Positions 8,909 to 10,147 of a DNA stretch of 13,212 bases are shown here, piece after piece. This DNA is from a virus. The notes under the pieces were generated by a model. The model did no database searches and was not told where the DNA came from. It saw nothing but the letters and a program-made list of their open reading frames with translations. Each line of letters starts with the position of its first letter. The first letter of the stretch is position 1. The stretch is from the UHGV virus genome UHGV-0125291; one strand, given 5' to 3'. A program made the translations under genes and the position numbers.

Positions 8909-10147
8909 TTAATTACTGACAGTTTCAGGTTTCGGGAAACTGAACAGTAAATCACGGTAGTATTCGTATTGTTTCTGGCGCAACTCGATTTCACGCGGAA
9001 GACCTTCGGTGATGGAGTTTGTCAGGGTATCGAATTTGTTGAGTATTTCGACAATGCGAGCTTGCAAGGTGAGTGGCGGTACAGGGATTGGGTATTTCAT
9101 TATATCCTCTTTACTGCCACGCGGCATTTTTGCTCCTTTAGCATGCTGCATGTTGTATTCAAAGAATTTGTCATCTGCCAAAATCTGATATAGATATCTG
9201 GTATTTATTGAGCTATCTATGCAACGAATAACCAATACATCGCCATTTGTTCCACCGATACAATCTGCTTGCCAAATTTTTTTCAAATATGGGCGGATAT
9301 TCCCAATCAGTATATCGTTAGGTATAAACTCCGTTAATTTACCTGATGTCGGTACATGATTAGATAATGATTTTCCTGCTCTGTTTTGCAGCAGATTATC
9401 TACGCCAACATAATTCCTTTCATCAAGTAGTTCGAAACTAATTCTTGTTTTCGAGTATTGAGCCACTTCTCCCAAAGTCTTCCACTCAACCTCACCCTCT
9501 TTAAAACTCAACAACTGGTCGCGATAGTAGTTGTACTGTTTTTTACGCATGTTAAGCTCAGCGGTAAGCTCAGCGGTAAGCTCAGCGGTAAGTGCAGTAA
9601 ATTTATCCAGAATCCGAACGATTTCAGACTGGATGGCAAGAGACTTTTCTGGATTGTTTGAACAGGGAATTGGAATTTTAATTTTAGATAAATCGCCACT
9701 GGAAACCCGTCGGACTTTAGCTCCAGTAATATATTTCATTTTTTGTGTTTGAAATATTTCGGACTGGAAGAAATAGGCGAGATATGTAACATTTTGCTCG
9801 TGGCGAAATAACATCATATCTCCGGAAATAGCAACGTTATCGCCAAGCCAGGCTAAAGGTTTTACTACATCTTCATCGTTTTCTGATGTTGTTGCTAGCA
9901 ATAAGTCATTTTTTTGAGCCTTTCTCAGCTTATTGGCTAGTTCTGGAAGCACGTAAGTAAATGTTTTATCAGCTGATAACCCATACCTTGTATAAATCTG
10001 ACCGTAATGTATTGCTGGAAAACCACTTTCAACGAAATCTTTTTTCTGTAGTCCATTGCCACGTATGAAATCGCCAAGCTCTCCCAGTGACAACCATTCA
10101 ACATCAACTCCATCCAGCAATTTGTTCAGAAAGTTCAACCCACTCAT
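8909..10147 (-). CDS. hsdS: Type I R-M specificity subunit (HsdS), Type IC family
   Basis: It has the conserved central region ([29 protein letters not shown]...[17 protein letters not shown]) and C-terminal region ([23 protein letters not shown]) typical of EcoR124/EcoDXXI-type HsdS, with two variable target-recognition domains. The start overlaps the hsdM stop by 4 nt. Confidence 0.93.
9553..9588 (-). repeat. three perfect tandem copies of a 12-bp unit encoding (LTAE)x3 in the HsdS central conserved region
   Basis: Plus strand TAAGCTCAGCGG x3 (9553-9564, 9565-9576, 9577-9588), read directly from the sequence. It is in frame on the minus strand as CTT ACC GCT GAG. Confidence 0.9.

Follow-up and report, generated by a model that had tools for sequence, protein, structure and literature searches.

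The virus genome UHGV-0125291 carries, in the 13,212 nucleotides analysed here (the window), what we regard with high confidence as an intact restriction-modification operon of the EcoR124 family, seated in a P1-like phage-plasmid, in the slot that separates pap from phd/doc. The specificity subunit of this operon, HsdS, contains three TAEL units between two target-recognition domains (TRDs) that differ from those of EcoR124. The same high confidence extends to the explanation as a whole, in which the array would set the distance between the two methylated adenines and whole units would be gained and lost in frame. The mechanism is already known; the repeat is the textbook spacer switch of Type IC systems, and the window represents a further Type IC member that is possibly already catalogued. 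What the present analysis adds is a small population picture of this switch acting repeatedly in nature, with arrays of one to five copies, length differences on nine of 53 domain-pair backgrounds, and one pair of cassettes that is identical besides the array.

The hsd operon in a P1-like phage-plasmid

The hsd cassette lies between two flanks that are about 98% identical to phage P1, the left part of the window (1-5595, with pmgO, pmgP, ppp, pmgQ, pmgR, pmgS and pap) and the phd/doc end (11806-13160). The whole arrangement is also found in many E. coli plasmids and in phage phi456. The GenBank record of P1 describes the EcoDXXI hsd locus as flanked by P1 sequences at both junctions, and puts R124/3 sequence at the pap-side junction, downstream of hsdR; these junction notes indicate that the classical Type IC systems sit in the same P1-derived slot between pap and phd/doc. 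The features of the cassette, in window coordinates, are listed below; the boundary on the right was obtained by calculation from the offset of the locus.

about 5596-11805, unstranded: hsd cassette, in place of P1 pmgT-humD between pap and phd/doc; P1 homology stops at 5595 and resumes before phd
10144-11706, minus strand: hsdM, adenine methyltransferase subunit, 520 aa, matching EcoR124 HsdM (PDB 7bst_D)
8909-10147, minus strand: hsdS, specificity subunit, 412 aa, laid out as N-terminus, TRD1, CR1, TRD2, CR2
9677-10093, minus strand: TRD1, N-terminal target-recognition domain, residues 19-157, 23% identity to EcoR124 TRD1
9467-9676, minus strand: CR1, central conserved helix region with the repeat, residues 158-227, 64 of 66 aligned residues shared with EcoR124 HsdS
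9553-9592, minus strand: 12-bp tandem array, TAEL x3 (residues 187-198), 3.3 perfect copies, unit as in the EcoR124II repeat region
9089-9466, minus strand: TRD2, C-terminal target-recognition domain, residues 228-353, 15% identity to EcoR124 TRD2
8912-9088, minus strand: CR2, distal conserved helix region, residues 354-412, 53 of 59 residues identical to EcoR124 HsdS
8788-8908, minus strand: hsdS-hsdR intergenic region, 121 bp, no ORF and no prrC, one sigma-70-like site at 8881-8852
5671-8787, minus strand: hsdR, translocase/nuclease subunit, 1038 aa, matching EcoR124 HsdR (PDB 2w00_A)

The three genes are read in the order hsdM-hsdS-hsdR on the minus strand (11706-10144, 10147-8909 and 8787-5671). 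The stop codon of hsdM overlaps the start codon of hsdS by 4 bp (ATGA), and the 121-bp gap precedes hsdR. The sigma-70-like site in this gap, which could represent a separate hsdR promoter, is a consensus match only; promoter and terminator scans performed no better than on shuffled sequence, and the number of such sites in the region does not exceed that in the shuffles. A strong terminator-like hairpin (ten pairs, G-C in six, with a T run after it) is seen on the minus strand at 5455-5477, between pap and the end of hsdR; on that strand it lies downstream of hsdR, and it falls within P1-homologous sequence. At the other extremity, the last bases of the window (13161-13212) are an IS1 terminus, directly after an ORF that ends at 13163. 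In pHFQ1, a close relative, an IS1 is found at this place, between the doc region and c1, and the pdcB-lpa-pac segment appears to have been lost there.

All three products align with their EcoR124 counterparts along essentially their whole length. HsdM matches residues 1-519 of EcoR124 HsdM (7bst_D) at 1148 bits, with six visible differences over the 519 aligned positions, and its translation contains the NPPY and DPAAGSG motifs. HsdR matches residues 1-1038 of EcoR124 HsdR (2w00_A) at 2281 bits and shows a DECH box and a D..ELK nuclease motif. HsdS is recognized as Methylase_S by Pfam (E 9e-28) and aligns end to end with EcoR124 HsdS (PDB 7bst_A, E 1.2e-74). Identity in HsdS, computed by region against the 7bst_A sequence as transcribed from its alignment, is concentrated in the scaffold: 64 of 66 aligned residues in CR1, 53 of 59 in CR2 and 12 of 18 at the N-terminus. 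The single gap in CR1 has four residues and corresponds to exactly one TAEL. The near-identical HsdM and HsdR, the conserved regions of HsdS, the TAEL array in CR1 and the gene order are together the features of the EcoR124 family, and the assignment of hsdS to Type IC, which a reading of the window from its sequence alone (the sequence-only reading) had made beforehand, is borne out by the end-to-end alignment, by the one extra TAEL in the central helix region and by the two near-identical partner subunits. Judged from its sequence, the window system is a Type IC system in the same three-repeat state as EcoR124II, EcoDXXI and EcoprrI with a different pair of TRDs, and its subunits would very likely complement those of other Type IC members in vivo.

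The TAEL array and the spacing of methylated adenines

The rule that relates repeat length to the spacer of Type IC recognition sites dates from 1987-1992. EcoR124I carries two 12-bp repeats and recognizes GAA N6 RTCG, EcoR124II carries three and recognizes GAA N7 RTCG, and EcoDXXI and EcoprrI carry three each; in hybrids with a changed copy number the specificity shifted as predicted, and the change of copy number has been ascribed to unequal crossing-over (PMC3874165). Expressed as the distance between the methylated adenines, two copies correspond to 7 bp and three copies to 8 bp (PMC12707154, Table 1). The sequence-only reading had invoked both this rule, with two copies for N6 and three for N7, and unequal crossing-over as the source of the change, in agreement with these two papers.

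In the window, Tandem Repeats Finder reports an array at 9553-9592 with a period of 12, 3.3 copies, 100% matches, no indels and a score of 80. Its unit is TAAGCTCAGCGG, as direct reading of the window letters confirms, and it matches the EcoR124II repeat-region sequence in published mutagenesis primers (PMC10644984). Three full units occupy 9553-9588 and are followed by four further periodic bases. The array is in frame in hsdS on the minus strand, where TAELx3 forms residues 187-198 (nucleotides 9554-9589); the "LTAE" repeats named beforehand are the same array with the register shifted by one residue, and the earlier claim of three tandem 12-bp repeats in hsdS is therefore upheld by the repeat finder, by the letters and by the reading frame. 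A perfect 40-bp stretch with a period of 12 contains 28 fixed positions, from which we estimate a chance expectation of 13,212 x 4^-28, or about 2e-13 per window, and a chance origin is ruled out also because the array recurs at this position across dozens of independent records. Another period-12 tandem match, a weak one (1.9 copies, 90% matches), lies inside hsdR at 6189-6211 and is probably due to chance.

According to the mechanism that we favor, two helices keep the target-recognition domains apart, and the TAEL units would lengthen the first of them. Each unit would add approximately one turn of helix, which would widen the distance between the two adenines methylated by the M2S complex by one base pair. 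Since the units are identical in DNA, unequal crossing-over or slippage could gain or lose whole units in frame, and such a change would alter the specificity of methylation and restriction with the domains themselves untouched. On this basis the window allele is predicted to methylate adenines that are 8 bp apart, which makes the specificity of a common phage-plasmid restriction system partly predictable. The earlier expectation of an N7-type bipartite site would hold with respect to this distance, and the label "N7" applies only if the half-sites are of three and four bases with the methylated positions as in the known members; otherwise the same spacing may read as N6 or N8.

Half-sites and relation to characterized enzymes

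The sequence-only reading had also remarked that the target-recognition domains depart from those of EcoR124, and the identities of 23% for TRD1 and 15% for TRD2 agree with this. Among complete E. coli records, 55 carry TRD1 at 99% nucleotide identity or more, and a further 25 carry it at 80-90%. TRD1 is found joined to other TRD2s, as TRD2 is found joined to other TRD1s. In a distant nucleotide search with TRD1, every gene that contained the domain was annotated as restriction subunit S; the contexts that were inspected are Type IC, so that no half-site could be borrowed from another family. Neither the methylome literature (the ST101 preprint, ST131 and O111) nor a search by accession number gave a recognition sequence assignable to this domain pair. 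The allele itself is common in deposited genomes, with 34 complete E. coli records, and a REBASE entry may thus already exist.

Among the characterized enzymes, EcoR124II (EcoR124/3) shares with the window system the three copies of the 12-bp unit in CR1, near-identical HsdM and HsdR, the gene order and, by the note in the P1 record, the pap-side junction. Both target-recognition domains are, however, unrelated, and the half-sites of the window system are expected to differ from GAA and RTCG. Identity with EcoR124II itself was rejected on the same low TRD1 and TRD2 identities to the domains that specify GAA and RTCG. EcoR124I (PDB 7bst and 2w00) is the structural reference of the family and shares the scaffold and conserved regions, but its two TAEL units put the methylated adenines 7 bp apart instead of 8, and its domains are different. 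EcoprrI (CCA N7 RTGC) belongs to the same Type IC family and likewise has three TAEL units, whereas at the prr locus the hsd genes are accompanied by prrC, which encodes an anticodon nuclease. Tyndall and colleagues reportedly placed prrC between hsdS and hsdR in 1994. Identity of the window system with EcoprrI was rejected, as prrC is absent and the 121 bp between hsdS and hsdR hold no ORF.

EcoDXXI (TCA N7 RTTC) resembles the window system in its three TAEL units and in P1 flanks on both sides, a likeness that is known from repeat number and flanks. If the window system were EcoDXXI, or another enzyme that is already characterized, its half-sites would not be novel. The P1-derived flanks, identical in kind at both junctions, the shared repeat number and the frequency of the window allele in deposited genomes all speak for such an identity, yet even a small sample contains at least 53 domain-pair groups on this scaffold, and the prior for any one named enzyme is accordingly low. 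We therefore consider it quite unlikely that the window system is one of the named enzymes.

Natural variation in repeat number

The domain pair of the window occurs in nature with one, two and three TAEL copies. Three copies are found in the window, in pHFQ1, in one metagenome contig, in 17 PLSDB plasmids and, among complete E. coli genomes, in all 21 of the nearest full-length copies. Two copies are found in 14 distinct proteins of 408 aa, which were found in the pap-hsd-phd/doc context, and one copy in a single protein from a draft assembly. Plasmid p1-H9 of E. coli H9 (NZ_CP029181.1; locus L002, 1501-2727) also carries this domain pair with two copies, and codon 207 of its hsdS has changed from CAG to TAG. 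A chromosomal lineage on leuX islands, 93% identical and with the same domain pair, has three copies in ten complete genomes and two in one. The chromosomal HsdS proteins of E. coli PAR and PG20180057 (loci L003 and L004) are identical except that they have three versus two copies. The leuX-associated island copies of these two strains adjoin genes of the McrBC family, which fits published reports of Type IC systems at hotspot 37 of E. coli. The ability of the locus to switch by gain or loss of repeats, as claimed beforehand, is supported by natural variants with one, two and three copies on the very domain pair of the window.

The same picture extends to other domain pairs. Exact-flank pattern scans of viral, genome and metagenome collections returned 56 loci, of which 39 had two copies, 16 had three and one, an intact gene, had four; these counts are a biased sample, as the scan detects zero to four copies and exact flanks only. 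The four-copy gene encodes an HsdS of 428 aa with four perfect units on metagenome contig OASQ01000144.1 (locus L036, 643-728), and the four-copy state is absent from the characterized natural Type IC enzymes in the reviews consulted for comparison. BLAST searches with synthetic four-copy and three-copy queries joined the matching pieces across the repeat and gave no clean counts, and they led to a five-copy allele in plasmid C of E. coli S30 (NZ_CP010234.1; locus L024, 2545-2604), the longest array seen, in an hsdS that is split by an IS1. When 131 full-length HsdS proteins were clustered at 95% identity or more outside the array, 53 domain-pair groups were obtained, and array length varied within nine of them. 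The protein collection that was searched holds imperfect three-copy arrays and no protein with a perfect (TAEL)3, and both the HsdS of the window and a RefSeq protein of at least ten complete genomes are absent from it; the collection thus looks filtered on perfect tandem repeats, and the frequencies of three-copy arrays were for this reason taken from DNA searches only.

The cassette of pHFQ1 (locus L001, three copies) and a contig of GCA_036507215.1 (locus L067, one copy) have no mismatch over 7.76 kb besides a 24-bp deletion of two units, while 108 sites distinguish the window from either one. A pair with zero mismatches that nevertheless differs in the array indicates that the change of copy number is uncoupled from divergence of the background. 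The difference reflects either a very recent change from three copies to one or a collapse of the array in the draft assembly. Further, 56 of 63 arrays are perfect at the DNA level, synonymous sites included, as expected if the units turn over by recombination or slippage.

How fast such turnover proceeds is a separate matter. The array could be a fast contingency locus that changes at high frequency within a clone and yields mixed methylation specificities, and several of the above observations would fit this: copy numbers from one to five exist in nature, nine of the 53 domain-pair groups are polymorphic, backgrounds identical over 7.76 kb differ in the array only, and the arrays are homogenized at the DNA level. 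A change of repeat length within hsdS alters specificity also in phase-variable Type I systems driven by simple sequence repeats (SSRs), such as NgoAV, and a survey of these systems cites the TAEL case as a precedent (PMC7383803). Those systems, however, rely on long tracts of mono- to penta-nucleotide repeats that shift the frame and change at high rates, whereas the window has three in-frame 12-bp units. Three 12-bp copies are a poor substrate for slippage, and switching is thus probably rare. Three units are kept by every one of the 21 nearest full-length copies from complete genomes and the ten chromosomal three-copy alleles are uniform, the literature describes the change as unequal crossing-over and not as phase variation (PMC3874165), and a cell whose restriction specificity switches could kill itself, which would act against high rates. 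A fast contingency locus is therefore unlikely, and we infer instead that changes of copy number are rare events followed by clonal spread.

It is also conceivable that the differences between records are artefacts of assembly, given that the one-copy variants and many of the two-copy proteins come from draft short-read assemblies, and the one-copy variants could indeed be assembly errors. As a general account this is highly improbable: the 40-bp array is shorter than any read, two- and three-copy forms both occur in complete genomes (E. coli PAR versus PG20180057, and p1-H9), and EcoR124I and EcoR124II are an experimentally verified pair that differs in copy number. Strains that differ in repeat number alone should restrict each other's DNA, and this mutual restriction matters for the transfer of P1-like plasmids, which are often carriers of resistance genes. 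A wider proposal, which we put forward as a tentative and rather doubtful one, is that the TAEL array of P1-like phage-plasmids and leuX islands is a recurrent natural diversifier of restriction specificity. Cassettes alike in all else would then pass through at least five states, from one to five copies, with their methylated adenines about 6 to 10 bp apart, and the one-, four- and five-copy states would be active enzymes whose spacers are new among the natural Type IC systems described so far.

Finally, the operon might be a silent or decaying remnant in which the repeat has no present function. Decaying relatives do occur, namely a frameshifted copy (1238 bp), the nonsense allele of p1-H9 and the IS1-split allele of S30 plasmid C, and the window itself ends in an IS1. 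But all three ORFs of the window are full length, HsdM and HsdR hardly differ from the EcoR124 proteins, which are biochemically active, and the overlap of hsdM and hsdS is retained, so that a remnant appears very unlikely and the window allele is, in our judgement from the conserved subunits, probably active. As for the nonsense allele, the stop in p1-H9 just past CR1 leaves an N-terminal half-HsdS, like the truncations of EcoR124I and EcoDXXI that dimerise and recognize palindromic sites.
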